A stretch of DNA of 64,000 nt. Origin: Phyllosticta citribraziliensis (lineage: Eukaryota). The first letter of the stretch is position 1. Every line of letters starts with the position of its first letter. Below are positions 1 to 42,371 of this stretch, one piece after another. The notes under the pieces are model-generated. The model was given only the letters and a program-made list of their open reading frames with translations. It did no database searches and was not told where the DNA came from. The position numbers were made by a program, and so were the translations under genes. Location: contig NW_027117350.1 in NCBI RefSeq assembly GCF_038025025.1, forward strand, positions 62,001 to 126,000, read 5' to 3'.

Positions 1-2756
1 TATATTAAAGACTAATTACTTTATACCTTATTATAATAGAGGGGTATCTATAATAAGGATTTAGATTAGTTTTCCTTTAATAAGATAACTAGCTTAGAGG
101 TAGTTCTTAAAAGAGAGAGTAATTAAGTACTACTTATAATTAGTAGTAGTATTATACTTAAAGAGCTAGGAGTCTCCTAAGATAAGAGGAATTTATAAAA
201 TAGTAGTAATATAGTAGAAGACCTAATTAATATAGTCTTCTAATACTATATTTACTAGGGTAGTATATTTAAGGATAGAGTTAACTAACCTATTAGTATT
301 AAGGAGCTTTATAGGTAACTAGAGTAGGAATATATTAATATAATATTTATATATAATTCTTATTAATTATATTTACTTTAGTACTACTATTAAATAAGAT
401 CTCTATAGAGGAACTATCTATTAAAGAGTAAAAGACTAAGTAGCCCCTAACTTAGGGTTAAGTAATATCTAGTATTAAAATCTTATAAAATAGTAAGCTA
501 AGAGTTAAATCTTATTTAATAGGAAAGGAATAAAGGGATATAAGCTATATTAGCTAAGAATTTAGAGGGTAACTATCCCCTAGGTTTAACCTTTTAACTT
601 AGAGTTAATATTAGTTTCCTTATTAATAGAAGAATATTCTAATAAACTAATATCTATAAGATTTATATAAGTAGGATAGGAGCTAGTATTCTAAATAGGA
701 TAGATAGTATTATTAGTATAGTATCTAGAATCTTAGTAGTAGAAGTAGTAGTCCTAAGTAGTAAGCCTTATATAGCTAGTTAAATTAAGCTTCTTAGAAG
801 ATAGTTTAGACTTATACTAGGCTCTAATCTAATCTAGAGGCCTTATAGCTATAGGCTTCTATTTAGGGCTAGAGTTAGTATTAGGGGTTAAGGCTAGTAT
901 ATAAAAAGTAGAATAGATAGAGTTACTTCTAGCTAGCTAGTTTTACTAGTAAGAGGACTAGATATAAGGCTAGTAGGTATTAATACTAAGAGTATTTCTT
1001 TTAATATTTTAGAGAATTTTAAGGGCCTTAAAAGTCTAGGTAAAGATTAAATAGAGAATATAATAAGAGAGGGAGGGGTAAAGAGAGTAAATAAAGCTAT
1101 AGAGTTATTAGTCCTTTATATAATTAGCTTAGGACTAGAGAGTAAGGAGTCTTATATAGAACTAGAAGGTATTTTTATCTCCTCTCTAGTAAATAGAGTA
1201 GAGTTTAATATAGGCCCTTTTAACTAGATCTAATATACTAGACTAGTATTTAATTTTATAAAAGAAGTTAAAAAGGGAGATAAGGTAGCCTTCTTAATTA
1301 TAATAAGTAAACTATTCTTATATAAAGATAAAGAGAGGATTATTAAGAAAGTAAAGAGTATAAAGTATCTTCCTCTTTTCTATAAAGTAGAGAGGTATAT
1401 CTACTTTTAACTTAATTTTAATAGTAAAGTACTACTAGATATATTTATTAGAGTTTATACTATTAAATTTCTCTAATAGATATATACTAGATTTCTAGAA
1501 GGATTTAAATAGGTTAACCTAAGTAGTAGTAGAGTCTTTATAGAGGAAGGGGGTCTCTTTATAGTTATATATTAGGGGTTAGGTAGTAATTATATAATTA
1601 CTAAGAGCTTAGCTTATAGGTTCTTAAATTATAGTAAAGTAAGGAGGCTAGACTAAGTAATAGAGAGAGAGGTCTTTATTATTATTAATAACCTTAATAT
1701 AAAGAGTATTAGTAACCTTATTAGAGAGCTAGTTCTATAAGGAGATAGCTTTAACCTCTAAGGTATAAATCTCCTTAATAAGGGTTTAATAGTCTACTTT
1801 CTAAGCTAATATAGTAGTATCTTATCTTTCTATCCTAATATAGAGCCTATTAATAGTATAGCTAAGACTAAAGTTCTTTTTCCTAAGTTTATTAAAGATA
1901 CTTTTTATACTATTATAGGAGGCCTAGAGGTATTTAAAAGTAGTTATTTCTTTTATAATAAATAAAGGAATTCTAGAGATAGGGATATAGTAAAGTATTT
2001 AATAGTAGTCTTTAATAAGGTCTTAGAGAAAGGTAAATAAGGAGGGGGTAATATTTAGAGTTTTAGTAATAAAATCTTTAAAGATATATAGGGATTTCTA
2101 TTTTAAAGGGAATAAATAGTAGGCTCCTCTATTATAGATAGAGAGGCTAGTAAGGTTTAAGCTAGAATAGATAACTAGAATAGTAGTATAATTAGATAAG
2201 AAGTTACTATTATTATTAATACTAGTAGTTTCTAAGCTAAGGAGTAGGATATTAGCTAGGTTTATATTTAGATATATAATAAAAGGGCCTTTACCCTTAT
2301 CTAGTTAAGGTCCTTATTTATTAATAAAGAGTAGATAGCTAGAGGCTACTACCTTAGCCTTATTAATATTAAATTTAAGTATATTAGAGATTTAAGAGGC
2401 TAATTTATTTAAAGTATTTTAAGTAATATCTACTAGAGTATTAGTAGTAGAGGAAGCTTAGAATAAGACTAATTAAGAGTAGATAATAGGGATATAGTAT
2501 AAGTACTTTATAAAGTAGTAAGGGTAGGAGCTAGAGGCTTTAGAAAATATAGTATTCTAGGTACTAATTAGTAAGGTAGATTTTTAAAATAGAAAATAGA
2601 GGCTACTTTAAATATAGTAATAAGGTTATTAGGTAAAGTTAAAGAGACCTTAGACTTATATAAGGCTTAAAGAGGTAAGTACTATATTTAGCTAACTAAA
2701 AGTCTAAGATAAAGAGAAAAAGGAGAAGTAGTACTAAGAAGAAGGTAGAAATATAG
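1..2756 (+). pseudogene. RIP-inactivated long ORF of unknown function (5' end outside window)
   Basis: Frame +1 (translated ~570-2200) reads as coding-like codons interrupted only by TAA/TAG, which RIP can derive from CAA/CAG/TGG/CGA. The purine-rich + strand continues to ~2750. No motif recognised. Confidence 0.45.
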
Positions 2757-4494
2757 TTATAATAGGCTAATTACTTAGCCTACTAAGTAAGTATATAGTT
2801 ATATACTTACTTATACTAGGTTAGGTTCTAGTAAACTAGTCCTTATATAGGCGCGGGCCTAATAAACTAGGACTAGTAATATAGTTATATCCTCTTTTAG
2901 TTAATAATAAGTCTTAAGTATAGGATACTCTATAGCCTAGCTAGAAGGATAGATTAAGGGGGACTATAGTTAAGTTACTAGTACTATATACTTAGCTTAA
3001 TTATACTAATAGTAGAGTAGTCTACCTAGAAAGATTTATTATAAATAAAGTAGGCCTTAATAAGAGATCTTAGAAGGGGTTATAATAGAGTAGGTTATAA
3101 GTTAAGTAAGGGAAGTAAAATTAGGATAACTAGATAGTAGGATTAGCTATAGAAAAGAGGGGATACTTATTAGGTAATATAGCTAGTATTAAGGTACTAG
3201 TATAGCTACTCTATAGAGGTTCTATAAGGAGTACTAGAATAAACCCTAGTCTTAATAGAGCTAATAGCTAGGAGACTACCCTAGCTCTAATCTAATATAA
3301 AGAAGGGGGGCTAAGGTAGAGTAGAGGGTAATTAGTATTAATCTAATATTATTTTAATACTTTATTTAGGAGTATAAAATATAGTTAAGGGAGTTATTAG
3401 ATAACTAGTAGGAGTAAATAAGGGTAAGATAGGAGATATAGTAGGGTGCCTAAGTAACCTTAAGGAAATAGTATATTAAAGAATTATCTATATATTACTA
3501 CCCTATTAAGTAGTTAGAGTATATAATAACTAGGATAACTATAAAGAAAACTATAGATCCTTTAGATATACTAGTTCTAATATATTTATAGTAACTACCC
3601 TTATCTCTTTAGGATATATAGAAGGGCTAAATCCTCCTAGGAGGAGCTACTTTTCTAGAGTCTAAGGGTAAGTAGAGGTACTTATAGTAGGGAGTATAGT
3701 AGATAATTATATAGTTAGAGTTAGTTATAGGGGTTAAATTAGTAAGCTATAAGATATATAAGAGTATTCTATATACTATTACTACTACTTATTAATTATA
3801 TAACTAACTACTTTCTTAGCTAAGCTAGTTAGGGAACTATCCTTCCTAGTCCTATACTATATAATTAGATAGACTTATTATACTTCTTTAGACTATTAAG
3901 AGCTAGTACTAGTATAGGATAATAAATATATAACTAGATAATTATACTATCTTATATAGTTAAGGATATCTAAATAGGCTATTTCTAATATATATATATA
4001 TACTAAGGAAAGTTATTATTCTAGTTAACTAAATTCTATACTCTTTTTACTATTTTATCTAGTAGTCTATCTATATTAGGTATAGCGCCCTAGGGAGCTT
4101 TACTAAATTATATAGAAGTAAGTTTTTTAGAGTAATTAGTTAGGATATAAAGTAGAAGTATCAAGGAATAGTATCCTAGCTATTTATAAAGGGCACCTTT
4201 TAGAGCTAAGAGTTAAAATAGTAGTAGCTTTTACTATTAGGCTTATTTAAGGGAAAGATTATTAGATCTAGTATAGCTTTTACTATATATTTAACTAAAG
4301 GGGAAAAGTAGGTAGTAGTACTTTTATACTTTTAGCTAATATTTTAATATAGGTCACCCTATAGAGATAGTAGATTCTTATCTAATAGGAATAAGTATTA
4401 TAAGTAAGGTTTATTAATTAGGCTAAGCTAACTATTAAATAGGGACCTATAAGAAGGGGGGGCCTACTAAGGAAGGTACCTATAAGGGGGTCAC

Positions 4495-4526
4495 CTATAG
4501 CACTAATAAGTACGCGCGCAACTAGT
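4495..4526 (+). mobile_element. Helitron-like 3' terminus (GC-rich palindrome followed by CTAG|T)
   Basis: 'gcactaataagtacgcgcgcaactag|t': CTAG at 4522-4525 is followed by T, and a CG-retaining palindrome lies just upstream. The neighbouring gypsy pol frame is cut exactly here. Confidence 0.4.
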
Positions 4527-7500
4527 TATTAATAACTATCTAATAAGCCCTAAGAAGGTTTTAAGCTTCTAAAGGGTATTTAGGAAAGTAAGGTCCTTAA
4601 TAGTATAGATCTTATCTTTATAGGTAATTACTCTATAGCTATAGATATACTAATCTAAGTATAAAACTAAAGGGTATCTAAGTAGTATCTTACTAGGTAA
4701 TAAAGAGATCTATCTATTATCTAGTACCTTTAGTATAGAGTCTAGGTATATAAGATATTTATTAAAAGTTTTAGAGTATATTAGTATATTATTAATATAT
4801 ATAAAAGTAAAATCCTAGTAGCTAATATAGTATAGGATATTATTAAATTAGTACTAGATATATAGTATACTATTATAGAATCCTATAAGAGCTACTACTA
4901 GGGTTTCCTAGCTATAGTAACTCTAGATTATTATATAGTACTAGTAGGCTTACTTAACTAACTATTAATAGAAGAAAGATTACCTATTAATAAGTAAGGT
5001 ATCTAAATATCCCTATAAATAGCTTACTAAGTCCTAGATTATTTTTAAAGTATACTTACTATAGTATATTAGGGTATTTAACCCCTAAATATCTATAACT
5101 CTATAACCCTTATACTTATACTAAACCTATAGGGGCCTATCTCCTAATCTAGGAAGCTAGTAGTACTTATTCTTCTAGATAATAAAAGCTAGCTAAGTAA
5201 ATTCTATTAGCTTATCTATCTATAATATTTTAGGTATCCTATCTATAGTAATCTAGTTATATAAGTCCTTAAAGGTCTTATTTAGTACCTACTTACCCTT
5301 ATAGGATATACTATATACTTAAGTTAGTAGGAGGTATCCTAGCTTATCTTATTAGTTATCTACTAGATTAATAGGTATCTAGTCTTCTTTAGGTATATTA
5401 ACTATAGTATATTAGTCTATAAAAAGTAGTAGATACTTCTCTAGGATCTTCTAAAAGGTATTAATATAATCTAGTAGACTATAGATATAAATACCATTAT
5501 CTAGGGTAGTTTCTAGCTCTAGTAGGATTCTATTATAGAATATACCTATTATAGAGTAGTTAGATACCTAGTAGTAGCTATTAATTTCTATAGCTACTAA
5601 GTATCTAAGCCTTACTTATTATAGGGTTATAAGTAGCTTATCTATATTATTATAAGTAAATAGCTAACTAAAATCTAAATTATATACTATATAATATAGG
5701 ATACTACCTTAAACTAAGAATAGGATCTAGCTAGTCTACTAATTAGGCTAAAATTTATAGAGATAGTTAGAGAGATCCTTACTAGCTATTATACTAATTA
5801 GTACTAAGGAGTATAGCTTAATAATTATATACTATATAGCCTTAATAACCCTATATACTAGGGTAGTATACTTCTATAGTACTACCTTAGTCTATAGATT
5901 ATAGTAGAAGGGCTAAGTTACTATACTTTATAAGCTATTAATTAGGACCCCTTAAGGTTAGATAATATTTATACTAATAATTAGTAGGATTAGTATATTA
6001 TTAATTACTCTTATATAGTATTATACTATCCCTATAGCTTATAAGCTATTAGGTAGTACCCCTAGTAAGTAGAGTAGTAAGAGGATATACTTATTAGATA
6101 CTATAGGTTTACCTACTATTCTATATATAGTACCTACTATTAGTAGGGTCTAGATCTTAATATTTAGTAGTTTATTATATAGGAAGCTTCTTACTACTAA
6201 GGATAAAGATACTCCTATATCTAGGTAAGCTATATTAAGGAATCCCTTAGATATAAGCTAGAAACTTATTTCTATAGATTAGTATATAGGGAAATAGAGA
6301 GGTACCTAGATATCTATTATATTTACTAAGGAACTAATTATCTATAGATCCTAAATATTTATAGTTAAAATAGTATTAAGTACTTTAGATATCTAGTTAA
6401 GCTAATAATTAGATTATTTAGTTTTATTACTCTTAGACCTATTATATACTCTAGTAGGATAGTCCCTTAAATATATAAATAGTTTATTATATAATATAAA
6501 GTATATTAGATAAAACTAGTATCTATATAGTAGGACTAGTTAAGTATTATCTAGGGTCTTATTACTAGTACTAGCTAATAGGCCTAATAGGGTAAGGGTA
6601 ATAAAGAGTATAAAGTCCTTATAATAGTAATAAGCTATATCTTCCTCTATAATATCTTTATCTACTAATACCTTATTACCTTTATCTAGAGTACTATCTA
6701 AAGTATCTCCTTCTTCTTTATTATTACTACTATCTAAGCTACTAGTATAGTAATTAGGCTATACCTTAGCTAGGCCCTTATCCTTCTAGTTCTAGTATTA
6801 GGATTTTAAATTAGTAGTATTTCTAGTATACTTAGGTAGAGTAGATAGGGCCTTTTTAATAGGATATATAATCTACTTCTTAGCTATAGTATTATTTATA
6901 TAACCCTAGCCCCTATAATAGAAGTTATTAGTATTATTATAGGGATTTTATAAGATTCCTTACTAATTAGTATTATATATAAAAGATTACTTACTTACTT
7001 AGGGATATACCTTATTATATAGCTTATACTATATATACTAGTATAATTTAATATCCTAGATAAAATCTTCTATAGTAGTATCTACTTATAGGTATAGGAT
7101 AAGTATATAATATTATACTTCTATCTTATTCTAGGCCTATATTAACTAGCTATATACCCTAGTAAGGCTAGATACCTTATTATAATAGATATAATCTAAT
7201 ATAAAATCTACTATTAGGGTATTATTATATATACTATATTTATTAAATTTTATTTTATCTAGCTACCTTATAGCTTTATAGACTAATAATCCCTATTACT
7301 CCTATAGTACTTATACCTAGTTATTAATACTATTACTATCTAGGAGTATATCCTAGTAGGCCTTTATTAATTATTAGATATACTATTTAGAGATATATCC
7401 TTTAAGGTATTACCCTAAGTTTTTATATATAACTTATACTAGAATATATTATAAGGATATATCTATAGCTTTAATAAATTATTTAATATTTTAGTAATAG

Positions 7501-11119: not shown

Positions 11120-11476
11120 TATTATAATAGGTATTATATACTTATATAAGTACTAATACTAGTATAGATAAACCTAGTATTATATAGTTATAAGCTACTA
11201 GCTACTATAACCTTAGGCTAATACTAGCCACTATAGCCTTAGACTAATACATTATAATAATCTATTAATACCTCACCTTTAAGATTAACCTAATAATAAT
11301 TACTAACCTTTATATAAAGGTTTAGAGGTATATAGGTATAAAGGAAAGGTTAGGAAGTAAGTATATTTTATATTTTATTCTTTTAACTTATTATATTTAA
11401 TTAAGATATATATATATTCTCTAGTAGTTCACCTTTAGCCCTAACCTAAAAAATAAGAATCTTATAAGTTATAATA
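11120..11476 (+). mobile_element. LTR (3' LTR preceded by polypurine tract), gypsy family B
   Basis: Termini tattataa...gttataata are RIPped TGTTGTAA...GTTACAACA. It is preceded by 'tagggggggtaa' (PPT-like) and homologous in inverted orientation to 12693-13093. It has an internal 26-bp tandem duplication at 11198-11249. Confidence 0.8.
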
Positions 11477-12692
11477 AATATAGTATATAAGTATATATAG
11501 CTATTTCTTAGTATCCTTATACTTATATAGACTCTATAGAAGATTATCTAGGAATTTAAAGATATCCTTATCTAAAGTAATCTTATTAGCTTTTATATAA
11601 GAAGTAAGGAAAGGAGTTAAGTATTATAAGACCTCTCTACTAATATAGGAAATAATATATCCTATAATATTCTTCTTAGTTTCTTCTAGTATACCTTTAG
11701 TAAAATAGTTATAGTTTTATTTAATTTTATTTTAAATAAGGAGAGTCTAGTATTTATATAAGGGATCTTCTCTATTAGTAAGAAGAGGAGAATTAGGAAT
11801 CTTTCTATTTTAATATTTCTTATTAGAGAAAGAAGTAGATATCTTAGCTATACTTTCCCTTATATAGATAGTTAGAGGGCTAAGAGACTTTTATATTCTT
11901 CTAGTAGAAGGATCTTAGGATATAGTAATAAATTTTAGGCCTTAGTCTTTAATTTTTAAGGGCCTTATAACTAAATCCCTTAAAGATTCCTTATAGGTAT
12001 TAGTATAGTTTAAGAGTATTTACTTAAGAGCCTAATTTTATCTTTATATATAATTTAATTACTACTATACTTAAAGCTTATTTAAGGGAGCTACCTTAAT
12101 CTTAAATTATTTAATATCTTAATATAGTACCTTTATAAAGGCTTCTATAATTAGAGCCTTTATTATATAGGTAGGTCCTAGATTTTAAGTATACTCTTTT
12201 ACTTCTACTAATCTAACTATGTAGAACTTATAGAGGAAAATAGGAGGAGGTCCTTATTTTTTCTTAATTAAAGATTATCTAGGGTTATATAAGTCTTTAG
12301 TTCCTTTATATAAATCTTATTAGATAGATTAACTAGTATTAGTACCCTTAGTAATACTAGATATATTAGCTTTATTCTTAGCTATATATCTTTAATAGTT
12401 TTTTACTTAGAATATTCCTTAAGTAGGTATAGATAGGATACCTCCTAAATATTTATATACTACCCTATAGTCTTAACTAAAAACTTCTATAGTTAATATA
12501 TAGTTAATACTTCTTAGCTATTAGATAATACTAATATATCTAATAAGGATAACTTAGGTTTACTAGAGAAAAGTAATAAGTAGTCTTATATAAGATTATA
12601 GCTATATATAATATTACTTAGGTTAAGTATTATAATACCTTTATAGGTAATAAAATAGGATAGAGCTAATACTTAGAATAATTTTTTATATC
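11477..12692 (-). mobile_element. Truncated gypsy gag following the 12693-13093 LTR
   Basis: Minus-strand de-RIP 'KIPDxPLLTDGEDP.YE.W...Q.K...N.DHF' (~11705-11803) is the typical fungal gypsy Gag motif. It is cut off at the 11476 LTR end. Confidence 0.7.
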
Positions 12693-13093
12693 TATTATAA
12701 CTTATAAGTTTCTTATTTTATAGGTTAGGGCTAAAGGTAACTACTAGAGAATATATATATATATATCTTAATTAAATATAAAAAATTAAATATAATAAAT
12801 TAAATATAATAAATTAAATATAATAAATTAAATATAAAAAATTAAAAGAATAAAATATAAGAGATATTTACTTTCTATCTATTTCCTAACCTTTCCTTTA
12901 TATATATCTACCTCTAGTTCTTTATATAAGGGTTAGTAGTTAATATTAGGTTAATCTTAAAGGTAAGATATTAATAGGTTATTATAATATATTAGCCTAA
13001 GGTTATAGTAGCTAGTAGCTTATAATTATATAATACTAGGTTTATCTATACTAGTATTAGTACTTATAATAGTATATAATACCTATTATAATA
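12693..13093 (-). mobile_element. LTR (5' LTR), gypsy family B
   Basis: The reverse complement aligns end-to-end with 11120-11476. It contains about 5 tandem copies of a 14-15-mer (aattaaatataa[t/a]a) at ~12770-12845. Confidence 0.8.
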
Positions 13094-14250
13094 GAGGGCA
13101 CCTATTAGGAACACCTAGACCTTAATAATTAAAGAAGGAGTTCTAATACTACTTATATTTATACTAATACCTCTAGTCTCTCTAGTAGTAAAGGTATAGG
13201 TATAGGCTTAGTTATACTACCTAATAACCTTATTAATAGTAGGTCTAAGTCCTTAAATATAGAGTACTCTAACCTAGTATATAATAGGGAATTAGAGGGT
13301 ATTACTAAGGTATTTAAATATACTAGTAGAAATATAAAAAATAGATATCTATACTATATATATATATATATATAGATAACTAGGTAAGAGGCTTAAAGAG
13401 GTAAATAATATATTCAGCTATCTTAAATCTAAACTAGAGAAGAAAAGAAGAGATAGAGGAAAGAGAAGAGAGAGAACTAAGTACTATCTTACTTAATAGC
13501 TAGGCTTAGTAAGCCTAGCTTATAAGATTATATAATAGGTTTACTAGGTTAGATTCTAGTACCTAGGTCCTTTAGGTTATAGCCTAATACTAGGCTACTA
13601 TATATAGGATAATTAATATTTCTAATAACCTAGGATAGTCCTTGTAATTAAAAGTCCTAGATATAGCTAAACTAGCTATATCTAGAGGTACTTCTATAGT
13701 ACTAGAATAGGTACTAAGCTATATAGATATATATAGAAATAAATTAGCTAATTCCTTAGCTAAGGAAATAACTAATAAGGATCCTAAACCCTACCCTAAA
13801 GCTCTAGTACTTATAAGCCTAGATATAAAGGATACTATTATATAGGACTAGTAGACTATTATAAATAAGGTAAAAGCTAAATCTAATAATATCTCCTCCT
13901 ATTATAGTACTTATATAACTAGACCTAGCTATAAGCTTAAGGTACCTATAGAAATACTAAGAATTATAGCCTTTACTTTTTATTAGCTAAAAATAGGATA
14001 TAGATACTTTAAAGCCTACTTATTATATATTAAATAGTCTCCTATTAGTATATATAGATATAGTAGCTCTAAGGAAACTCCTATATACCTCCTACTATCT
14101 TATAGGGAGTATAGAGATTAAAGAAAATTACTTAGTATTATAAGCTAATAGGTTACCTAATTAGTAGGCTAGTTCTAAGTAACTATTTATCTAATACTAA
14201 GGCATATAAGTATAGGAGATAAAGCTAAGTAAGGAGGGTATATAAATAAG
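13094..14250 (+). mobile_element. LINE (Tad/I-like non-LTR) ORF2 3' fragment: RNase H plus CCHC knuckle, RIPped
   Basis: De-RIP motifs: 'YIYTDAS..GIGIG' (~13150-13210), 'VYNGELEGI' (~13275-13302), 'LEWVPSH.DI.GNELADSLAKE' (~13700-13767), 'QLK.GHGYFKAYL...C.CG...ETP.HLLL.C' (~13985-14105). Confidence 0.85.
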
Positions 14251-14785
14251 GTAAAAGTTAAATTAGTAGTAGGCCTACTTAGGAGTATTAATTATAAGAA
14301 AATAAAGATAGCTATCTATAGTATCTATATAATAAAGTCCTTTTATATTCTATTACCTAACTTACCTTAGGAATTATAATAGAAGGAAGGAAGGTACTAT
14401 AAGAGAATAAGACCTTATCTTAACCCTATATTATATAGTAGTTTACTAGCTTATTAATAGTAATATATTTCTTAAAACTAACTACTTATTTAAGTCCCTA
14501 TAATAGGTATAGGAGGTTCTATTCTTATTTCTATTATTATATTAGTATTATATATATAGGTACTAGGGTTAAATTATCTAAGTAGCTATAGCTCTTAGAG
14601 AGTTAGGTAACTTTAGTATATATAGCTTATAGCTATAGCTAGTAGTTATAGTATAGGTATACCTAGTACTTAATACTAAGTAGTATTTAATATAATTATA
14701 GGTTTTTAGCTAACCTATAATACTTAGAGAAGATATCCCCTCTCTAAGTATTAAAAACCTATCTAAAAACTTAGAAACTATAAAG

Positions 14786-14950
14786 TATAACTCATCCTAT
14801 AGATAGGCACATAAGCTAAATATATCTTAATTAGACTAACTACCCTAGCCAGGGCTAGGGGCTAACTATACAGGCCAGGGCCCCTACCTATACTAAGGCC
14901 ACTACCCTAAATATACTAGGCACTAAGCAAAGATATACAGATATATAATA
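14786..14950 (-). repeat. 3' LTR of the 12-kb element (165 bp)
   Basis: Ungapped match to 26657-26821, with differences being C/T or G/A transitions. Ends tataac...tataata are RIPped TG...CA. Confidence 0.93.
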
Positions 14951-14981
14951 AAATAGTAGCTATATACTAGTAATATCCTTA

Positions 14982-17597
14982 TCATAAAGTCCAGTTATCC
15001 TCCTATATATAAAACTCTAGTTTCCCTATTAAGCCTAAGTAGTCTAATACTTTATAGGGCTAATCATTAGGTGTCTAATATAGAATATTAGCAATACTAA
15101 TATTAGGGGCCATAAGACTTACCTATCTAGCAGGGTAATTAGTAGTATAGTTAATATTAGTTTCATACTATTATTAATTATTAAGAAGCTTAGTAAGTAG
15201 GTTATTCTAAGCCTTAAAATTAATATTATTATTAGTAGGTAGAATATAGATATACTAAATATTAATATTATAGTCCTCCTAGAAAGTCTAGGGTAGTAGT
15301 CTATATATAACTATAAAAGCCACCCATACTACCATACTATTACTAATACTAATATTAAAACCCTTAATAAAAGCCTTAGACTTAGTAAGGTAGTAGTAAT
15401 AGACTAAGGGTATATATCTTAGGCATATAAGCTAGTCATCCTTATACTAAAGGGGGTTATAATCTAGGAGTAGGGTAATATAGTAACCTATACTAAGTTT
15501 AAACTATAATATAGAGATAATTATCTTATTCTAAGAAGCTTAGGTAAGGAGACTACCTAGAATTAGATAAGTAACTATAGTAGGGTCTATAATACTTAAT
15601 AGTATAGGGATATTATACTCTATCTATAGGGTATAGGTCCTAATACCTATAGTTTTAGGGGTTCTTATTATTAGGTAATTATAGATCCTAGTTAGTATAG
15701 CTTTATTATTATTAAACCTAGTAGTAAAGTAGTTATTAGGTACCTTAGATATAACTATACCCTAACTTATATAGGTAGGGCTACTACTAGCTATATAGTA
15801 GGCTTCTTCTTATATAAGGAATATAGTAGCTTATATATTAGCTTTATTATTAGCCTACTTATTCTACTAGTATATCTCTTATAATATCTCTTTAAGGATA
15901 TAATTAAGCTAGCTACTATAGGTACCTAAAATAGCTATAGGGTAGTTAGGTTATACTTCTAATATACCCTTATTATATATCTTAAGGAAATTAGGGTCCC
16001 TTATAATATTACTAGTATCTTCTAAGGTAATATTAGATAAAGTATATAAGTAGTAGATAAAGTCCTTATCTTTTATAGGGACTACTAGGGCCTACTAGTT
16101 CTTTCTATTATCTACCTAAGGGGTATAGTACTTATTACTAATAATAAACTCTCTATCCTTTTCTACTAGGTACTTTATAAACTTTTAGAGCTATAGTATT
16201 AGGAACTAGTAAAAATTAGTAGGATCTAATATTAGTAGGTAGAATTATAATTCTATAGGGAAAATTAAGTATATATAATCTAATATAAATTTAGGGACCT
16301 TAAAGGTATAGTCTAGGATTAGAAATAAACTATAGTACTTATATAAGTTAACTATAATAGTATACTATAAGATAGTAGAATTAATATCTAGGTCCCCTTC
16401 CTTCTTATAGCCTAGGAACTATTAATAACCCTAGTCTCTATAGAATAAGTATCTACCTAGCTTAATAAGATAGCTAAAATAGACCTATCCCTACTTATTA
16501 ATAATTAGTAAACTAAAACCTATAGGGTAATATAGTCTATTTATACTACCTTCTATAAGGAAATAGGGATATAGGCTCTTAGTATTATAATCCTTAAGAT
16601 TATAACTAGTATAGTAAAGCTAAATAACTATTAGGAGTATAATAATAAGTTAACTAGATAAATAGACTCCTTTTAGTAGTAGGGTATTATTATAGATAAT
16701 ATAGTAATAGGCCCCTATATACTTAAAAAGTAGCTATTTATAGGTATTTTAGAGGAAGTAACCCTTTCTATAATTAGAGGGTTTAAAGGTATTAATATTA
16801 TATAGCTTTAGCTTCTATAACTCCTTTAGATATATCTAGTTACTAGCTATAATTAATCTTACCTTACCTTTACTAGGGTTATTATTATTATCTTTATAGA
16901 GTATTAAGGTATTATTATCTATAGTACTATATTTATTAATATTATAGGTAGCTCTATCCTTACCCTTATAGTAGGTTATAACTAGGGCCTTATTATTACT
17001 AGATATTAGGATAAACCCTGCTACTTTATTAGTATCTAGTATAATAGGGGCCTTTTTAATTAGCTTAAGAAGCTATTTATACTCTAAAGGAGTAGTTATA
17101 GCTATTAGTAAAGTACTATTTAGTTAGTTTCTATTATAGTCTAGGGGCTAGCTATTATTCTTCTTTATATTAGGGGTCTTACCTTTACTACTTTATCCTA
17201 TAACTATAACCTCCTCCTTATTACTTTCCTTAGTATTATTACTTTAAGTATATTAGGGTTACTTAGTAATGGTAGGTAAGCTACTTATAGGTATACCCTA
17301 CTTAGTTATTATTAGTATTTCTAATAGGAGTAGGAGTAAAGATATACTTCTAGGTATCTCTAGGGGTATAACTATAGCCTTTAGTATAGTACCCTTAGGT
17401 TTAGTTAATATAGCTAGGGGTGAGCCTATAGTACTACCTTTAGTACCTTTCTTTAGCTTTATAGTATAATAAGGAACTATATTAAGTAAGTTAGGCTTAT
17501 TAGCCTTAGTTAAGTAGGTAAAGTATTAGGTACTAATAGCTTTAGTAGCTAAAGTAGTTACTAATATACTAGGGGTACCTTTCTTCTTTAGGGGTAT
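14982..17597 (-). pseudogene. Extra ORF3 of the 12-kb element (~871 aa, unknown function), RIPped
   Basis: One continuous frame runs from 'ata ccc cta aag aag aaa ggt' (de-RIP MPPKKKG) at 17597 to TGA at 14982-14984. Internal stops are only TAA/TAG, and in-frame C-ending and AAG/GAG codons occur throughout. Confidence 0.7.
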
Positions 17598-18149
17598 AGT
17601 ATAAAGGATAGTATATAGTATAAGTTAAAGGGTATACTAGTTATAAGGGTAGGTTAATAGTATAGTAAAGATTAGCTATATATTAAAATAGTAGATCCTA
17701 GGTTAGTAGGTACTAAGCCCTAAATAGTCTTAGATTAAAATAACTAACTTAGGAAAATCTATTTAGCCCTCTATATTACTTATATATCCTCTATACCCCT
17801 CTAAATAAAGGAATAAAATAAAGAAACTCCCTTATAACTCTATTATTCTTTATTATCTATTATTCCTTCTATTAAATAAAGGAAACTATTACTCTCCCTA
17901 TTATATAGAGGGGTAATTACTATATAAACTATAATATAAAATAATAATAGGAAATAAGGAAGAATAGGAATACTAATATTAACTATACTATATTTATAAA
18001 TACTATAGGCTGAGGGCCCTTATATAGGGGGGATTATTATTAAAGGGCTAGAGTACCTGGCCTAGGAATAGGTTTAGTAGCTACCCTATAGCTTAGTAGT
18101 ATCCTTACTATTAGCTAAGATATAATTATTAGTAGGGTATATAACTATA

Positions 18150-21100
18150 GTATATGCTAGTAGTTTTAGTATATATAGTAGTTATCTTCTTATAGAGTAT
18201 AGGGTGGTACTAGTCTTAAGTCTTTTATTATACTCTTTAATAAGGTCTATAGTATTTTTAAGGTTATTAATATTATACTAGACTTAATACTAAGGGCTAT
18301 AGCCCCTCTATTTAATTAAGTACTAGAGCTATTTTATAAAGGGGTTATATTAGTAGTCTAGTAAGGTTTTAATTTTATACTTAGGGGCTAGGTTATTAAT
18401 ATTTACTATAGGTATAGGGTCTAGAGGTACTTAGTAACTATAAGGGTTATTAGTAGGATTATACTTAAGTTAGCTAATTAATATAATAGGGTAGATTTTT
18501 ATTAGCTCTAAGAGGTTAAGCTTATATATTAAGGGGCCTATAACTCTCTTTACTTAGTAAGACCCTATTCTTAGTAGTTATAGCTTTTTTAGTAGGTTAC
18601 TATAAACCTTATACCTAAAATATAGGTATAGAAGTACCTTATCTCTAATCTTAAATTAGACTAGCTTATAGTAGGAGTTATAGTACTCCTTCTAGGTAAT
18701 AGTAGTAAAAGCTAGGGCTTCCTAGACTTCTACCTAGTACTAGGTATATAGTACCTTAGTATTAATATCCCTTATACTCTTAAGATTACTAAATATAGTA
18801 GTCTATAGGTTAAAGCTATATAGAATCTTATATAGTATATACCTAGTAGATATATTATAGGATATATTTATTATCCCTTATATATAGGGAAGTATATCTA
18901 TCTATATATAATTAGAATTAGTAAATATAAAATAATATATTATATATTCTACTATCTAATTAGTATATTTAGACTATCTATTAGCCTATAGGTAATATAC
19001 TATAGTACTATAGAATTATACCTTTAGTATTATAAAAACTTATATAATAAATTTAGATAGTTATTTTATATCCTAGTCTAAGATTAATATATTAGATAGG
19101 CCCTAGCTATAACTATATAGGTCCTTAAACTAAACTAAGGCCTATTACCTAGTAGTCTATATCTCTAGCCCTAGGGTAAGTAAGATTACTTTAGAGAACT
19201 TATATATAGTAGTAAGGAGACTATTAAAACTACTATCTATAATAGCTAGGAGCTTTATAATAAAATTAGTATATAATATAAAGAAGGGGATCTTAATTAT
19301 AGTAATTAGTATTAAGCTATTATAAGGGTAGTACTATTTAGTAGTTATATACTTATAGTTAGGGTAATTTTCTATATATAAGTATAGCTACTTATATAAC
19401 TAGTATATATAAAATAAGGCTTAGATAAAGTCTATAGCTTAATTAGGGTCTTAGTAGCTATAGGTATTATATATAAACTAGAAGATTTCCTTCTTATAGG
19501 CTAAAGGGATATATAGGTATTCCCTATTCTTCTTAGTATAGTTAATAAAGTAGATAAGCCTATAGTATAGGATAAATTATAGTCTTAGGATAGGATTATC
19601 TTTACTAGGGTATATCTCTATACTCTATAGCTATCCCCTATTACTTACTTCTTCTTAAGGGGCCTCTACTAGTAAGTTACTTCCTTTAGGTATATTTACC
19701 CTAGTTAAGGCTAGTATATCTACCTTAGTTAATATAGGTATATCTACCCTAGTTCTATCTTAGGTTACCTTAATAGGCTAGCTTTTAAACTACCTCTCTA
19801 GGGCTATAGCTTATTTAAGTACTTATAATATATAAGCCTACTATAGATCTACTATATAGCCTTCCTATACTTTATTCTTAAAAGTATTAATTATCTCTAC
19901 TAATATAATATAGAAGTAGCTTATAGCCCTAGTAGGATTAGGGTTATATATTACTATAAACTATATAGGATCTATATTATCTAGGAATTCTACCTTATCT
20001 ATAATATCCCTATTATTATAGCTAGCTTTTAAAGATAACTAGCTTAAGGTATCTAGTATAATATAATTCTATCTAGGGTAGTACTTTATAGTTAAAGGAA
20101 ATTATAAGAGATACTATAATACCTATATTAGGTATAGATTTAATTACTTATTAGATTAAGAAGTAGTAAAAGTCTTCTACTATACTAGTACTATTACTAT
20201 AGTATAGTCTATAAAAAGTATTATATAAGCTACTAATTATACTAGAGTATATAGTTTTTTAACTACTTAGTATACCCTAGTTATCTTGAGTTTAGTAATC
20301 TAGTACTATATTTCTATATTAGATAGCTATTATAAGAGGAATATAATTAGCTTAATTAATTAATATAGGAAGTCCTTTATCTATTTTAGCTATAGGGGTA
20401 GTTTCTCCTTATTAGTATTAGCTACTATAACCTTTAGTTACTAGTCTTCTATTTCTAGCTTAGGGTCTCTAGTAATATAGTATACTATAACTCTAAATCC
20501 TAACTCCTTTAAAGTATCTATATTAATATATAGTAGTTATAATAGATTATAGTAAAACCTTTAATATATCTTATAAAGTATATTATATATTATATTAAAT
20601 ACTACTATTAGTAATAGCTCTAGTAGTATTAGCTTAGCTACTATAAAGTATCTCCTTACTTACTTATCTTTTAGGGCTTTCTATAGATATAATATCTTAA
20701 TTACCTCTAGGGGCTTAGCTAGTTAGGTATAGTAGGGGTAATTATCTTATAGCTATCCTATTAGACTAATAAATATTTTAAGTTCCTATAGTATATAAGG
20801 GAAAACTATATCCTTAAAGGCCTAGATCTTAGTATTAGAGGTAGTAATTCCTAGCCCTAATACCTATTAGCCTAGGAGTATAATTAATAGGTATCCTAGA
20901 TAGGTTTTCTTAATAGATAGGCTTATATTAACCTAGTCTAATATGGTAAAGATAGCCTCTAAGTACTAGATATACTTATCTAGTAATTATAAGAAGATAA
21001 TAATATTATTAATATAGGGGTATATAAAGGCCTAGTAATTCTAGAGTAATATATTATATTATTACTATATATATTAAATGCTGTTATAGTAGCCTATAAG

Positions 21101-24100
21101 AGTAATATTACTTTATTCTACTCTATAATAGGTAAGTATTACTAGCTTATAGTAGTCCTCTATATATACTCTCTATTAGTAGAAGAATACTATTATATTA
21201 ACTACTAAAATAAAGAGGTACCCTTAGATTTCTAAAATAATATTAGATATTAGTAGTAGAGGGTAACTATCCTTCTCTATAATAGTATTTAGTATATAAA
21301 TATTAATAATAATATAATCCTTCTATTTAAACTCCCTATTCTTACTAGGGACCTATCTCTATACTATAAAGACTAGGAACCCTAGACTTATATTACCTTA
21401 TGCCTATTTAGCCTTACCTTACTTATATATAGGGTTAAGGGTATTATCTTAGAATTCTTTATCTTATTATAAGGCTATATATAGTTATATTTATTAGAAT
21501 TTATCTCTCTAATCTAGGACTAGTAGAATATATATCTACTCCTCTTTAGGAACCTTAATAAACCCCTTTTAATTAGTAAATAGGTCCTTAAATTAGTCTA
21601 TAAAGGCTTAGTAATATTCCCTAGTCTTAGAAGGGCTAAAGATTAGGATACTATTATTTAGCCTTCCTTTTTCTATTATTAGGAGTAATAGGTTTAGGGC
21701 TACTAGGCTATAGTCTCTATTAATAAGCTAGTAGCTTATATTAAACTCTACTACTATTAGACTACCTAATTATAAGTTCTTTAAGATAGTTAGGGTCTAG
21801 TTAGAGTTATTTTATATAATAATCTATATTATATTAGTATTTACTATAATAGAATATAGGAATCCTCCTTTTTATAGAAAGGGAATAGGTCTTATACTAT
21901 AATTAGGGTAGAACTTATAGTATTAGATTAGTAATATTAGTCTAGGTATATAGATAGGTACTTTTATAGTACTATAGGGTAGTATTATAGTATACTTACT
22001 TACTATAATATATTAATATACTAGTATTATATATATCTTTATTATTACTAAGATTCTAAAGCCTCCCTTACTAAGGTAGGGCTAAATTACTTAATCCTTT
22101 CTAAGGTCTATAATTACTACTTTAGGATATAAGAGGTTATTCCCTATTAATAGTAGGACTAATATATCTTAATTAATAATATATATATAGTAAGGGATAT
22201 AGGCCATAGCCTTACTATCCTTTATATACCCTAGTAGGTAGAGGGGTAGGAGTATATAGTCTATATATAATATTATAGTACTAATACTATTAATTTATAT
22301 AGGCTTTAGAAGTATAAGGATCTTTATATCTAGTAGTTACTCCTATAAGAAGCCTCTAGTAATTAATAAGGATAATACCCTAGTATTAAGATATATAATA
22401 TCTATAAGTCCTAATATATAGAGCTAAAAGCTATACTTAAGGGACTAGTAATAAGGGAATCCTAATAAGCTATTATCTACTAGTAACCCTAGTAGTACTT
22501 ATTTAGATATTAAGATAGGGGGATCCTTACTAGATAAAGCCTTTTTATTAGTTCCCTTAATTCTAGGATCTATTATACTTACTATTATAAATAAACTACC
22601 TATTAATAGGGTACTACCTTTAGCTTTACTCCTCTAATCCTAGTATAGCATAGTATATATAGCTAAGCTAAATAGAAAGAGTAGGCTCTATACTAATATA
22701 TAGATTACTAGAATAAGTTATAGTTAAAAAGGGGCTATATATTATCCTATTATATAGCCCTAAGTCCTTTTAGGGACTCTTACTTATTATTAATAGTAGC
22801 TATAAATATATCCTTACCCTATATATTATAGGTAGCTCTTAAAGATCTATATTAGTAACCTATACCCTATAAATAGTAGTATAACTATTATTTTAACTAG
22901 AATCTCTCCTAATAACTATTATATACTATTAGGTATATAGGGGCTAGTCTAGGACCTATATCTAGCTAGTCTAGGGATTAGTTAAAAGCTACTAAATAAT
23001 AGTATTAGCTATAGTTATAGACTAATATATTAGGAGGCTAGTTAATAGATTCTATTTTCTTTTCTCCTATAATCTTAGAGGTAGGGGAACCTAGCTCTTC
23101 TAGGGTAGATTTCTCCTCCTTACTAGACTCCTCTCTAGTTTCCTTACCTTATATAAGGTACTATCTATAAGTAGTTTATCTCTTACTAATACCCCTTATA
23201 TTATTAACCTTAAATAGTTATAACTAGGATCCTAAACCTAACTCTCTTTTTAATCCTACTCCTATATTTACTAGAGTAGGTAATATAAGTTATTTTAGGT
23301 AGGTAACCTACTTATTATTACTTAGTCCCTTAGTACTTATATTATCCTAAGGGGCTATATATCCTCTATTAGTCCTTTTATAGTTTACCTAGCTATAGGG
23401 GTAACTTTAATTAGTTATCTATCTCTAGCCTTACTAGGGGAAGGTTCCCTTACCTACTTTATAGTATTATACTAGGTACTCCTAAATTTAGTAATAGCTC
23501 TTAATTATTTTAATAAAGGACTATATAGTTATTTAGGGTATAGGCTCCTCTAGCTACTACTAGTAGAAAGGATCTATTTTAGTAAAGGTATTAATAAGCT
23601 AATTATAGATAGTCTAGAAGCTAGCTATATATCCTAAATAGATATAAGTAATTATAAAGTCCCTAGTACCCTTATTATATACCTCCTTAAGACTAAAACT
23701 AATAGTATTTAAAATATTAATTACTTTATACCAGGTTATACCAAAATCCTCCTAAAGTAAGGTAGCCTAGTATTTAATACTAGCCCTAGTATATACATAG
23801 GTACAGTCCTCCTCTATAATTTATAAAGTAAACTATATATTAGTAGTTCCTTTAAAATACTTCTATAGATTAAGTTATACTATCCTAGTACTAAATATTA
23901 TATAAGCTATCTAAGTACTATTAATAAATTATTCTATAGTATAGTAAACTACCTTCTTATATTTTATAGTACTACTACCCTAGCTAACCTTATCTTTACC
24001 TAGATTAGGGTTAAAGTAGCTAATATTATTAGGGTAGAAGTATAGGAAAGTATAAGAGTAGTTATAATTATTATCTATATACTAAGTAATTTATTAGTCT

Positions 24101-26328
24101 ACTACTAGTAGTAGAGACTACTTATATATTATACTATTAGGAAAATAGAACTAGAAGTATAATAATAGTTATAATTATATAAGGTTTAATAGTCCTCTAT
24201 AATTATAGGTTTTAGGAGGAGGAAAACTAGACTAGGTATAGTATTCCTAGTAATACTATACCTTTATATCTAGGTAAAAGTAACCTATATTATCTTAGGG
24301 GTAGTAGGTATTATTTATAGTATTACTAATAGATTTAAGACTAGCTAGGTACTTACTTAATAAGCTATAAAGGGTATTAATACTATTATTTATACTCTTA
24401 AAGCTTTCTATTTATACCTATTACTAGTTAAGGATAAGCCCCTAGAGTCTAGTAATCTAGCTTATTAAAGTAGTATACCCTACTAGGCCTTATAGGATCT
24501 CCTCTATCTTATTTATAGTATTATAGTACTATCTTTCCTTACCCTAAGTATCTATTCTTTAGCTAGTAGGGCCTAGCCTAGCTATAAACCTCTAAATATT
24601 AAGGCTACTAATATTAAAGCCTATAGTAGGCATACCTTATATTAGTATAGATAATATAAAGGTTCCTATAGTTTAAGCTAGTAGAGGTAGGAAGATTCCT
24701 ACTATAGAGATTATTAATATAGTAGCTCTAGTAGAAAAGGGGGCCTATACCTACTTTATACTAGTACTATAGGTATTAAAAGTATAGATATATAATTTTA
24801 GTAGGGGTACTATTATTCTAGATCTCTAAGTATTTAAGAAATTTAAATAGTCCCTTTACTAGGTCTTATTATCTTTATCCCCTTAATAATTATTAAGACT
24901 ATTATTATAAGGGTTATTATACTACTTAGTATTATAATTAATATATAGGTTCTCCTTATTATAGGGTAATATCTCCTCTATATTCTTATTACTATTATAC
25001 TAGGGGTTTAGTTTAACTATCTCTATTAAGGAGGTATAATATCCTTTACCTTTATTAATAGGGACCTATAAAGCTATAATTAAACTAGTATATAAATATA
25101 TACTCTTCTATCTATAAGTACTAACTAAGGTTTAGCTAACTTGACTTAAGGGCTAGGCTCTTAATTAAAAGTGTAGGAGTAGTTTTATAAAACTAGGAGA
25201 ACTATAATTATGTCCTTATAATATTTAGGGTAGAGTAGTCTTAGTTAAATTATTAGGTTAAGCTAGAATATTAAGTTATAAGGTATACTCTATATAAGGT
25301 TTATAGGTAGGAGAGTTAAGTATAAGAGTTAAGGGGTATCCTTAAAGAGTGGTGATAGGAGTATAGGCTAATAAGGATAGTAGATTAGCTAAGTATATAG
25401 TTAGGGTAGCTTAACTAATTAGGTAGGTATTACCTAAGGGATAATTATTTAACTACTTTAATATCTAGCCTAGGGTTATTAGATTAGTTATTAAAGGTCT
25501 TATAGGTAGTAACTTTTAAGGTATTACTAGGGTACTTCCCCTTTTTACTTTAGGGATACCTATTATTCCTAGGGCCTTATTTATTTATTATAGGCCTGAG
25601 TTAGGGGTTATTAGGTAGTCTAGGAGTATTTATATAGAGGAACTAAAGCTTCTAGGTTTTAGTATAGTAGTACTTACTAGGTTATCTATAATAGCTAGGG
25701 ACTATTATTTATATAGGCTAAACTAGTTATATAAGGATCCTTATCTAGACTAGGGTACTTATAAATCTAGTAATCCTAAGACTTATATAGGTATAGGAGT
25801 CTAATTTAGCTAGCTCTTTATAGCTTAGCTAAATAGTAAATATACTGAGCCTTAACTAAAATAGGAGCTATACCTGGCTATTAAAGGGGCTGCTAGGGTT
25901 TAGAGGTGTAGACTGGTTCTTAGTATTATTAGGGTGTTTATACCTAGGGTGACTGGGGTACTTATACTAACTTGTATATAGGATACTAGTAATAGCTTAT
26001 ATAGCTTATTATATACCTTGCTTACCTACTTAATAGTGTGAATAACTATACCTTTCTTATAATTACTACTGTTATCCTATTAGAATAGGTAATCTAGGTG
26101 GTACTATTTAGTGATATTTTATTATATTAATAGGCCCTAAGCTATTAGGGGGTTAAAGAGCTTAGTAATCTATTTTATTTATTATAGGATCTTAGGAGTG
26201 AGTAGCTTATCCTTATAGGTCTAGTTCTTCCTATAGTCTATAAAGGCTTTAAGCTCCTAGGCTAGTAGTATATCCTAGTTACTAATTATATTATCCTTAT
26301 AAGGATGGTTAGGTATAGTAGGATTTAT
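18150..26328 (-). pseudogene. gag (with long N-terminal extension) and pol of the 12-kb element, RIPped
   Basis: De-RIP motifs: gag 'DDIGYF.PD' (~24268-24294), PR 'VCLDTGAS' (~22372-22400), RT 'MGYCNS..YVQR' (~21062-21100) and YIDD (21005-21016), integrase C-term 'G[P/S]Y.V.RVVG...KIHPVVSISQLE' (~18465-18570), chromodomain 'YLIKWRGYGP' (~18290-18325). Pol is in a different frame from gag. The pol end coordinate is approximate. Confidence 0.88.
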
Positions 26329-26656
26329 AGTAGTAAGGTAGAATCCTAGTAGATATAGGGGTAGTTTATAGTTAATACCCTAGGTAAAAGATTAGAAGGG
26401 TATTTTATAGTTTAGGGTAATATATTATCCTAATCCTATAGTAGGCTACTAGTCTTTTAGTTAGTTAGGGGAGGGTCTTAGTAAGGGGCTAGCCTTATAT
26501 ATCTATATTACTATTATAAACTAGGGCCTTTAGGTAGGGTAGTAGAAGTAACTTTATAGTACTAGTATACTATAATATTCTAGGTAGGTACTTTTATATA
26601 TATTCCTTATACTATAGTATTAATTAGTAGGGTTATAGTACTTTTAGCTACTACTT

Positions 26657-26821
26657 TATAACTTATCCTATAGATAGGTATATAAGCTAAATATATCTTA
26701 ATTAGACTAACTACCCTAGCTAGGGCTAGGGGCTAACTATATAGGCTGGGGCCCCTACCTATGCTAGGGCTACTGCCCTAAATACACTAGGTACCAAGTA
26801 AAGATGTATAGATGTATAATA
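26657..26821 (-). repeat. 5' LTR of the 12-kb element (165 bp)
   Basis: Matches 14786-14950. On the minus strand it is followed by aag+tagtagcta (PBS-like TGGTAGCTG after de-RIP). Confidence 0.93.
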
Positions 26822-27689
26822 TAAAGGCTACCTTAGCCTTTATTAAAAAGACTAATATAGCTACTAAATAGTAGTATATTAAAAGAGAACCTACTATATA
26901 GTAGGGTTAAGGAGTTAAGGAGTTATAGATATATATATATATATATATATATATCTCTATATATCTTACTCTCCTACCTGTTAAACCTAACCTTTTTCTT
27001 TATAAACCTTTACTCCTTTAGTTTTTACTTATTTCTACTTATATTACTAGTTTAGTAATTTTCCTATAAGGGCTAGGCCTAAAATGTCTAATTATAACTA
27101 CTTAAAAAATCCCTAAGAAAGACTATAATATATATATATACACTCCTAATATAGTTATAACCTAATAGGATATATAATATATAAGCTATATAGAACTACT
27201 AGAATAGCTATCCTTATCTCTTATAGTCTTAGACTTAACAGGGATATCAAACTAAATAATTAAATAAATCACTTCTCCTTCTAGGCTAACTAGATTGGAC
27301 TAGTATACACGTGAGCGATAGGCGCCGAACGCCGAACACCATGAAATGCCAGCGGCGCGTCGCGCGCAACAACTGTCTTATATATTGTTCAATGAATATA
27401 TATAATATAGATGTTATAAGATACAATATCTACTTTAGAGCATCTTAAGAAGGGAGCTCTTAGCATTGAAAGAGTTCATTCCATACATCATCATAGAAGA
27501 CCGATAACCGGATCGGTGTTGACCGACTTCAAGTCTTCTTCAAGACCAATTTTTCTTTTCTCACCAAAGGACAAAGCGAAGAAGGAATCATATCATGGCA
27601 AGCCCCAAGCCGTAGACACCGAGTTTGCTCCTCTAATTCATGATAACGAACGCAGGAAAGACGGTTCAAAGCACGCTGAAATCCTCCGT

Positions 27690-40724: not shown

Positions 40725-41698
40725 GGGCGGAGGTCAGAGTCGAGTCTGGGGATATAGGAGCTAGCGTTGACGAGGATCGAAGGAGTTGTCGCGTGGACGC
40801 ACTCTGACGAAGCGAGAGAGAGAGGGAGTCATCAGGTGGAGAGGGACGACGACGTGGGCGAGGGCGAGGGAGTGAAGCAAAGGGCGGGTGTCGCTGTCAC
40901 CATGGATTGACCTTGCGTCGAGCCGGAGGCCTCGCAGCGGTGGACGACGGGGAGCATCCTTGCCTGACTAAGCGTGCCTAAGCTGCCACTGTACCCAAGT
41001 CCTCAGCCGTAGCCGTTACAGAATGCTGACCGTCAAACCTCAAACCGACGACATGAATGGAAGTCTTCACGTCAGTTTTCCGCCTCTGCATACGTCACTA
41101 CACGCCCTGCCTTGTGCACCGCCACCCGTCTGACGACGCCCACGCCACAAGCCGCGGCTGCAGCCAGGGAGGGATTGGAGCTGAGCGTCTTTTGCTGTCG
41201 CAGTGCGCCTTGGGACTTGCTGCTCGCTACCACTGCTTTACACTAACTACATGTACTCTCCATGAGTTGTCATCGACTACCGCTGAAAGGATCAGGAACT
41301 CATTTCTTGACACCCACTGCGACGCCAAGCCGTTTCTCGCATGCTCAGTCTCAACGTTGACTTCAACACTCTGCACCTCCTTTTCACCCAGGTTTGCAAC
41401 CTTCCGACAAATGCTTTCCGCGTTTTTCTTTGTTTTCCCATTTCCTCCTCGGCCGAGCGCTCAGAGATGGCCGCGGGGACTTATCAGAAATTTCCTTTAT
41501 TCACACCTACCACTCAAACTTTGTCGACTCAAAAAGACTCTTGGTATCTGTTGCATTTTGGCGCACCGTATGCGCCTTGTCTCATTCTTCCGCAACTAAC
41601 AAGATGCGTCCGCGTCTGGGTTTGGTTCCATTCCTGGGTACGAGTCCCGGGATCATTACTGGATCATAACCCCCTTATCTCCCCGCCCCTTTCATATA

Positions 41699-41790
41699 GC
41701 AGCGGTAGCTCAGTGGTAGAGTGTAGGATTGCAGTTTCTGTGAGACAGCATCCCATCCCGAGGTCCCCGGTTCGATCCCGGGTCGCTGCT
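41699..41790 (+). tRNA. tRNA-Cys(GCA) with ~20-nt intron (41735-41754)
   Basis: Acceptor stem GCAGCGG/TCGCTGC, A-box TAGCTCAGTGG, anticodon GCA at 41731-41733, T-arm CCCGG-TTCGATC-CCGGG, U73 discriminator, and a T-run terminator at ~41795. Confidence 0.88.
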
Positions 41791-42371
41791 TCTCTTTTTG
41801 CGGTCCCTTTTTGGGATCCAGTACCCCTGGATGTGGTCTATGAGAAGCACTTTCGGTTGCTGAGGGCGTTGGATGCCATTTTGTTTTTGAAAATGACAGC
41901 AATGTTGTCGAAATGCCGTGTTCAAGAGCGCAGCTTGACCTGCGAAGAAGGCGAATGCGGGTTGAAGGGATCAGTGGACACAAAGGAGGGCACATCGTCC
42001 GTTCCCCGCCCAAGTCACCTTGAAATTATGTGAATTGCAGGGGTTGCCAGTCAGGATGCACGCATTACAGCAAGGGAACCCAAGATTTCGTTCGCGAACC
42101 AAAGATGTCATGAAGAAAGCCGAAACAACGGATCAAGTCGACCTACGAGCAAGACTACACAGCTGATTCCCCAATCGAGACAGTCACGCTAGAACGATAT
42201 GCAGCAAGGCCATGAGCGACAGGTTTAGGCGCGAAAGGGTTCATTGATACAGCTATAATGCAAGTCCGTGTCGTCGTCCATTACCGATTATAGTCTCTAT
42301 TGAAAGCTCGAGTCTATGCATGTGCCTGGATGCCCCTGATCCCCAAAACTCCTTGCAACGAAACGTCTGAT

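Follow-up and report, generated by a model that had tools for sequence, protein, structure and literature searches.

The 64,000-nucleotide stretch of DNA analysed here (the window) is divided by composition: bases 1-27000 have a G+C content of 21-31%, and the remainder 50-61%. The AT-rich part is a fungal repeat block in which almost all CpA and TpG have been turned into TpA. RIP indices of the block, and of the element described below, are extreme (TpA/ApT 1.82-1.84; (CpA+TpG)/(ApC+GpT) 0.04-0.06), as compared with 0.52 and 1.29 for the G+C-rich part. RIP yields transitions only, and leaves sequence written in a purine/pyrimidine code unaffected. Other features of the window include long inverted repeats at 11120-11495 and 12674-13093 (arms of the listed pairs 52-138 nt, 71-97% complementarity, approximately 1.2-1.8 kb apart), which are seen again in purine/pyrimidine code and look like an approximately 2-kb element with long terminal inverted repeats. 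A separate Ty3/gypsy-type reverse-transcriptase remnant, with a RIP-tolerant motif score of 9/12 and no LTR pair, lies on the minus strand at 4773-4808, and a tRNA-Cys (GCA) gene, the sole tRNA found in the window by ARAGORN, is at 41698-41792; its length of 95 nt suggests an intron.

Within the AT-rich block, 14786-26821 is one bounded 12,036-bp insertion with 165-bp LTRs (Table 1). It can be treated as a single insertion because the LTR pair is exact in purine/pyrimidine code, because the two LTRs are flanked by a TAAAG duplication, and because no other repeat pair is present inside. The LTRs are 89% identical, with 18 transitions and no transversions, and 15 of these 18 differences are between CpA or TpG and TpA; after purine/pyrimidine recoding the match is exact over the full 165 bp and ends abruptly on both sides. 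Within the element there is no second LTR pair: a RIP-tolerant local comparison of its two halves scored 32.8 at best, versus 211.8 for the true pair. The LTR termini read TA...TA, which may be the RIP product of TG...CA or may equally be original. In one sequencing run, X1, a contig joins 14133 to 26818 (the letters between were not reported), as would be expected from an uninterrupted, “empty-site-like” copy of the surrounding host repeat.

Table 1. Features of the insertion and of its borders, in window coordinates.
Feature	Position	Strand	Basis or remark
Target-site duplication TAAAG, left and right copies	14781..14785, 26822..26826	.	Same five bases flank both LTRs
3' LTR (minus strand as sense)	14786..14950	-	Exact purine/pyrimidine match to 26657-26821
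3-nt spacer, AAA on plus strand, between motif and 3' LTR	14951..14953	-	Mirrors AAG at 26654-26656
Inverted primer-binding-site-like motif, in the place of the polypurine tract	14954..14964	-	TAGTAGCTATA on plus strand, TATAGCTACTA on sense strand
Chromodomain-like core	18299..18322	-	RIP-tolerant motif score 7/8 and translation judged by eye; weak evidence
Integrase with C-terminal SH3-like part	18455..19285	-	Weak further stretch (query 806-1082) of the match to Ty3 Gag-Pol
Reverse transcriptase	20702..21346	-	phmmer against PDB chains; residues 119-333 of translated 18250-21700 minus
Primer-binding-site-like motif TAGTAGCTA (minus strand), adjoining 5' LTR	26645..26653	-	
3-nt spacer AAG (minus strand)	26654..26656	-	Between 5' LTR and motif
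5' LTR (minus strand as sense)	26657..26821	-	Exact purine/pyrimidine match to 14786-14950

The flanks on either side (13500-14785 and 26822-27500) are a high-copy repeat in run X1, with a summed depth of 1,288-4,592, as against 126-1,461 inside the element. Compared with other copies, this flanking repeat has another 598 bp inserted at 14134-14731 (joint 14133 to 14732, two contigs of the same run); it also has a purine run, AGAGAGGGGA, on the minus strand at 14736-14745. A (TA)n microsatellite is found at 26930-26955 (repeat span 26917-26969), approximately 100 bp outside the 5' LTR.

Evidence for the class of the element comes mainly from phmmer searches against PDB chains, with stops read as X. 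Seven sequences were matched at E <= 10 in the reverse-transcriptase region: Ty3 Gag-Pol (7q5b_A, E 5.1e-05), Ty3 RT/RNase H (4ol8_A, E 3.1e-04), and five retroviral RT chains. The integrase stretch is downstream of the reverse transcriptase on the same strand, and Pfam SH3_Tf2-1 was matched at 18464-18643 (E 0.021, 15.4 bits, under the cut-off of 30). A RIP-tolerant scan with short motifs found, in order along the minus strand, an integrase motif (11/14), an SH3 motif (9/12) and a chromodomain core (7/8). Because the Ty3-type reverse transcriptase and integrase matches fall on the minus strand, this is taken as the sense strand; judged by these matches the element is Ty3/gypsy-like, and it is probably a chromovirus.

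Other searches of the coding content were negative. Pfam gave no families at E <= 0.01 in the six read-through frames of 13501-27500, nothing except SH3_Tf2-1 at E <= 10 in seven chosen frames, and only two spurious matches (S10_plectin, 0.15; Sigma_reg_N, 0.12) at E <= 1 in 61 chunks of approximately 400 amino acids. Pfam is, however, almost blind to this DNA: a control chunk bearing the reverse transcriptase also gave no families, so that the Pfam negatives carry no weight here. A homologue search with the integrase region yielded 3,680 candidates, none at E <= 1, and the best minus-strand frames of 14951-17399 and 22800-25701 each had no phmmer matches among PDB chains. Together, 14951-18250 and 21700-26656 (approximately 8 kb) have no detectable homology in PDB or Pfam, although their stop density clearly varies with a period of three bases. 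Such codon periodicity, seen in stop-codon density and in purine-at-position-1 statistics, does not distinguish the strand, even over the known pol. Approximately 3.3 kb from the end of pol to the 3' LTR, and approximately 5 kb from the reverse transcriptase to the 5' LTR, are thus without assigned content.

With the minus strand as sense, 14951-14964 sits where the polypurine tract belongs. The sequence-only reading of this DNA had described the sense strand before the 3' LTR as not purine-rich, and the counts bear this out, with purines at 6 of 15 and 15 of 30 positions; if plus were the sense strand instead, the corresponding 15 nt before 26657 would have 4 of 15. The longest sense-strand purine run near the 3' LTR is 5 nt, the nearest runs of at least 9 are 0.85-1.2 kb from the LTR (15803-15811 and 16156-16164), longer ones are further off (for example, 17578-17589 and 17210-17219), and no purine tract adjoins either LTR on either strand. 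Since RIP makes transitions only (18 of 18 differences between the LTRs are transitions), a purine tract would have stayed purine: its absence is not a RIP artefact, and this is the firmest part of the finding.

In the place of the tract is a motif that mirrors the one inside the opposite LTR. The interior plus strand starts AAATAGTAGCTATA (14951-14964), and the reverse complement of 26645-26656 reads AAGTAGTAGCTA; over the innermost 12 bases at the LTR edges, AAATAGTAGCTA and AAGTAGTAGCTA share 11 identities, the twelfth position being a transition. The earlier claim that the same inverted motif borders both LTRs internally (14951-14964 and 26645-26656) is therefore borne out, each copy being directly inside its repeat. 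If the LTR termini are included, the mirror symmetry covers 24 nt, with 19 identities, 3 transitions and 2 transversions; LTR termini generally resemble each other's reverse complement.

How improbable is such a match? In 400,000 random position pairs from the same AT block, the chance of at least 11 of 12 identities in exact register is 8.75e-5, and that of a purine/pyrimidine run of at least 12, also in exact register, is 2.2e-4; under a looser rule (register within one base either way and an exact run of at least 9) it is 0.0015. On the other side, TAGTAGCTA is a common word, with 19 hits over both strands of the 27 kb (rank 116 of 19,034 nine-mers). One of them, at 26858-26866, lies 40 bp beyond the edge of the element; apart from the two motif copies, none of the 17 hits adjoins anything LTR-like. 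The likeness does not extend beyond 12 bases, where gapped extension was not significant (p = 0.48). Past the 9-nt core the two copies part by transversions, with AAAG at the 5' site and TATA at the 3' one, and at most one of them can therefore follow a tRNA further.

Relating either copy to a tRNA requires undoing RIP, and each TA step may descend from TA, CA or TG. With three TA steps of three states each, the 9-mer has 27 possible ancestors, one of which starts TGGTAGC (for TAGTAGC alone, one of 9 ancestors). TGGTAGC is the start of the tRNA-Met-complementary primer-binding site quoted for metazoan GalEa elements in PMC5445492. The 5' site could thus descend from a TGG-initial tRNA-Met complement; the restoration to TGGTAGCTG(CA) proposed from sequence alone survives as a possible ancestor, and its standing as the ancestor is reduced to one among 27. 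The tRNA-Cys gene of the window was considered as a source of the primer and rejected, as the expected site does not fit. Rfam searches of both junctions at E <= 10 returned nothing tRNA-like, and the motif used as a literature search word led to unrelated primer lists only.

According to three papers (PMC6317226, PMC2864245, PMC10085805), LTR retrotransposons and retroviruses prime their plus strand with a purine-rich RNA cut from the genome. With canonical Ty3/gypsy chromoviruses the element shares an LTR pair, a 5-bp target duplication, reverse transcriptase followed by integrase and, possibly, both a chromodomain-like C-terminus and a TGG-initial site that begins 3 nt from the inner edge of the 5' LTR. 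The canonical elements have both a tRNA-Met primer-binding site and a polypurine tract, whereas here a complement of the putative binding site is in the tract's place; the present element is also 12 kb long, with approximately 6 kb of content without identification. In Tf1/sushi chromoviruses, as described in the same three papers, the first bases of the transcript serve as its own primer and the polypurine tract is retained. They share with this element a fungal chromovirus-type pol and a stretch of their own RNA complementary to the primer-binding site, but in Tf1 the complement is inside the LTR at the transcript start, and here it is just upstream of the 3' LTR. Self-priming of the Tf1 type was not supported for this element: the best LTR complement is 10 nt, and 1,113 of 2,000 random 20-mers from the block do as well or better in purine/pyrimidine code, a test that RIP weakens.

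In fungal GalEa Copia elements (PMC5445492) the 5' LTR is immediately followed by a Conserved Hairpin Site, whose defining 9-mer is CTGATCAGT or CTAATTAGT and has an inverted partner 12-41 bp further in. Like the present element, they occur in filamentous ascomycetes, have short LTRs and a 5-bp duplication, and show next to the inner edge of the 5' LTR a priming signal that is not the conventional one. Their pol is of the Copia type, whereas the pol found here is Ty3-like, and the hairpin site was discarded as an explanation, both CTGATCAGT and CTAATTAGT being absent at both junctions on either strand. Long-range interactions in the RNAs of yeast Ty1 and Ty3 bring the surroundings of the primer site into pairing, or into bridged contact, with the surroundings of the 3' LTR. 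These elements keep a plus-strand purine primer, and their 3' partner, which is located in U3 or close to it, does not mirror the primer-binding site. In the present element, by contrast, the 3' motif is such a mirror copy and there is no purine tract.

Relatives of the element are present in sequencing data. Three runs contain small shares of it (0.13, 0.09 and 0.06), with no RNA run among those listed as containing the element. In run X1, 1,322 contigs align at 80% likeness, with differences that are mostly A>G and T>C, from which it follows that less mutated copies exist. One of these contigs, of 2,616 nt, spans the end of pol unbroken (16817-18885, approximately 94% alike). A contig of a second run, X2, covers 14922-15348, with 29 letters on the LTR side; under a 31-letter rule it was not counted as bridging. 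An apparent joint from 15452 to 18263 was judged from both sides to be a microhomology artefact and set aside. Purine/pyrimidine-coded patterns for the LTR/motif junction and for the LTR core had no hits in viral contigs and none in metagenome contigs.

The reading we tentatively prefer, while holding it at somewhat less than even confidence, is that 14786-26821 is a RIP-inactivated LTR retrotransposon of the Ty3/gypsy type (chromovirus-like), and that the mirror motif is genuine, inherited, and marks the start of the plus strand. The arrangement would work as follows. An ordinary-looking primer-binding site three bases inside the 5' LTR (26645-26656) is matched, inside the 3' LTR at 14951-14964, by the reverse complement of spacer and binding site instead of a polypurine tract. 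In the genomic RNA, the sequence of the primer's 3' end would then recur three bases ahead of U3, and minus-strand DNA copied from it would offer a further primer-binding site directed towards U3. The plus strand could be primed there by a second tRNA molecule, or by an RNA fragment left by RNase H on the site. Plus-strand DNA would start three bases outside the LTR, mirroring the minus-strand start, and both ends of the linear DNA would be made alike, offering integrase the same 12-nt LTR terminus and a 3-nt overhang. In the version with a second tRNA, one primer and one RNase H specificity would define both cDNA ends. This narrower proposal, in which a fungal chromovirus family gave up the polypurine tract and has the same initiator tRNA prime the plus strand as well, a second molecule binding a mirror-image site on minus-strand DNA, is considerably more doubtful. 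The geometry of dual priming is sound and coherent. The anatomy of the element, its sense strand, the missing purine tract and the improbability of the match are shown, whereas all that concerns priming is inferred. Points against the preferred reading are that there is one copy only, with extreme RIP, that the motif word is common, that the match stops after 12 nt, and that the required ancestor is one of 27. Searches of open-access texts found neither tRNA-primed plus strands nor a primer-binding-site complement in the place of the polypurine tract, and the prior is therefore low.

A serious rival, rather unlikely in our judgement, is a look-elsewhere coincidence in RIP-simplified sequence: the 5' primer-binding site would be ordinary, the 12 bases at the 3' LTR would resemble its complement by chance, and the polypurine tract would be weak or lost. 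The frequency of TAGTAGCTA in the block, with its 19 hits and the extra copy at 26858-26866, counts for chance, as does the lack of likeness past 12 nt; CpA and TpG are nearly gone (index 0.06), so that different ancestors collapse into the same letters. The scan from which the motif was picked took in very many windows, and a coincidence at the level of 1e-4 is therefore to be expected somewhere. Published fungal Copia elements are also described as highly variable in their polypurine signal (PMC5445492). Chance must nevertheless contend with an empirical probability of approximately 1e-4 in exact register at the same composition, and must further coincide with the full lack of a purine tract at that very place (6/15 purines) and with a 3-nt spacer that is mirrored too. 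A single decayed copy cannot decide between a new priming mode and coincidence.

Two further explanations each seem improbable. The 3' motif may serve RNA cyclisation only, pairing with the primer-binding-site region of the same RNA and uniting the R regions for the first strand transfer, while the plus strand is primed at another place or by a primer that goes unrecognised. In favour of this explanation, the two 12-mers are complementary to each other as RNA, and long-range pairing between 5' and 3' parts, close to the primer site, is described for yeast Ty elements. It leaves the missing plus-strand primer unexplained, however, and the pairing would compete with the primer for its binding site. 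Alternatively, the stretch at the 3' LTR may not be the original 3' end, the true polypurine tract having been shifted or lost through a nested insertion, deletion or conversion. The element, at 12 kb, has approximately twice the usual size, 14951-18250 is without recognisable homology, and sense-strand purine runs (17578-17589 and 17210-17219) are found 0.7-1.1 kb downstream of pol; the approximately 3.3 and 5 kb without assigned content keep rearrangement alive. Against it, there is no second LTR pair or repeat to indicate a nested element, the 2,616-nt X1 contig across the end of pol (16817-18885) indicates that this junction is not private to the present copy, and the rearrangement would need to end exactly at the LTR edge and yet mirror both spacer and site.

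Should the match turn out to be coincidence, the locus would be a caution about word matches in RIP-simplified DNA. Annotation tools that require a purine tract would miss elements of this kind; RIP cannot hide a purine tract, so that even a fully decayed copy allows its absence to be scored. If the preferred reading of the mirror motif as the start of the plus strand is true, a tRNA-end sequence at the position of the polypurine tract would be a second solution to plus-strand priming, and the purine tract would be dispensable.
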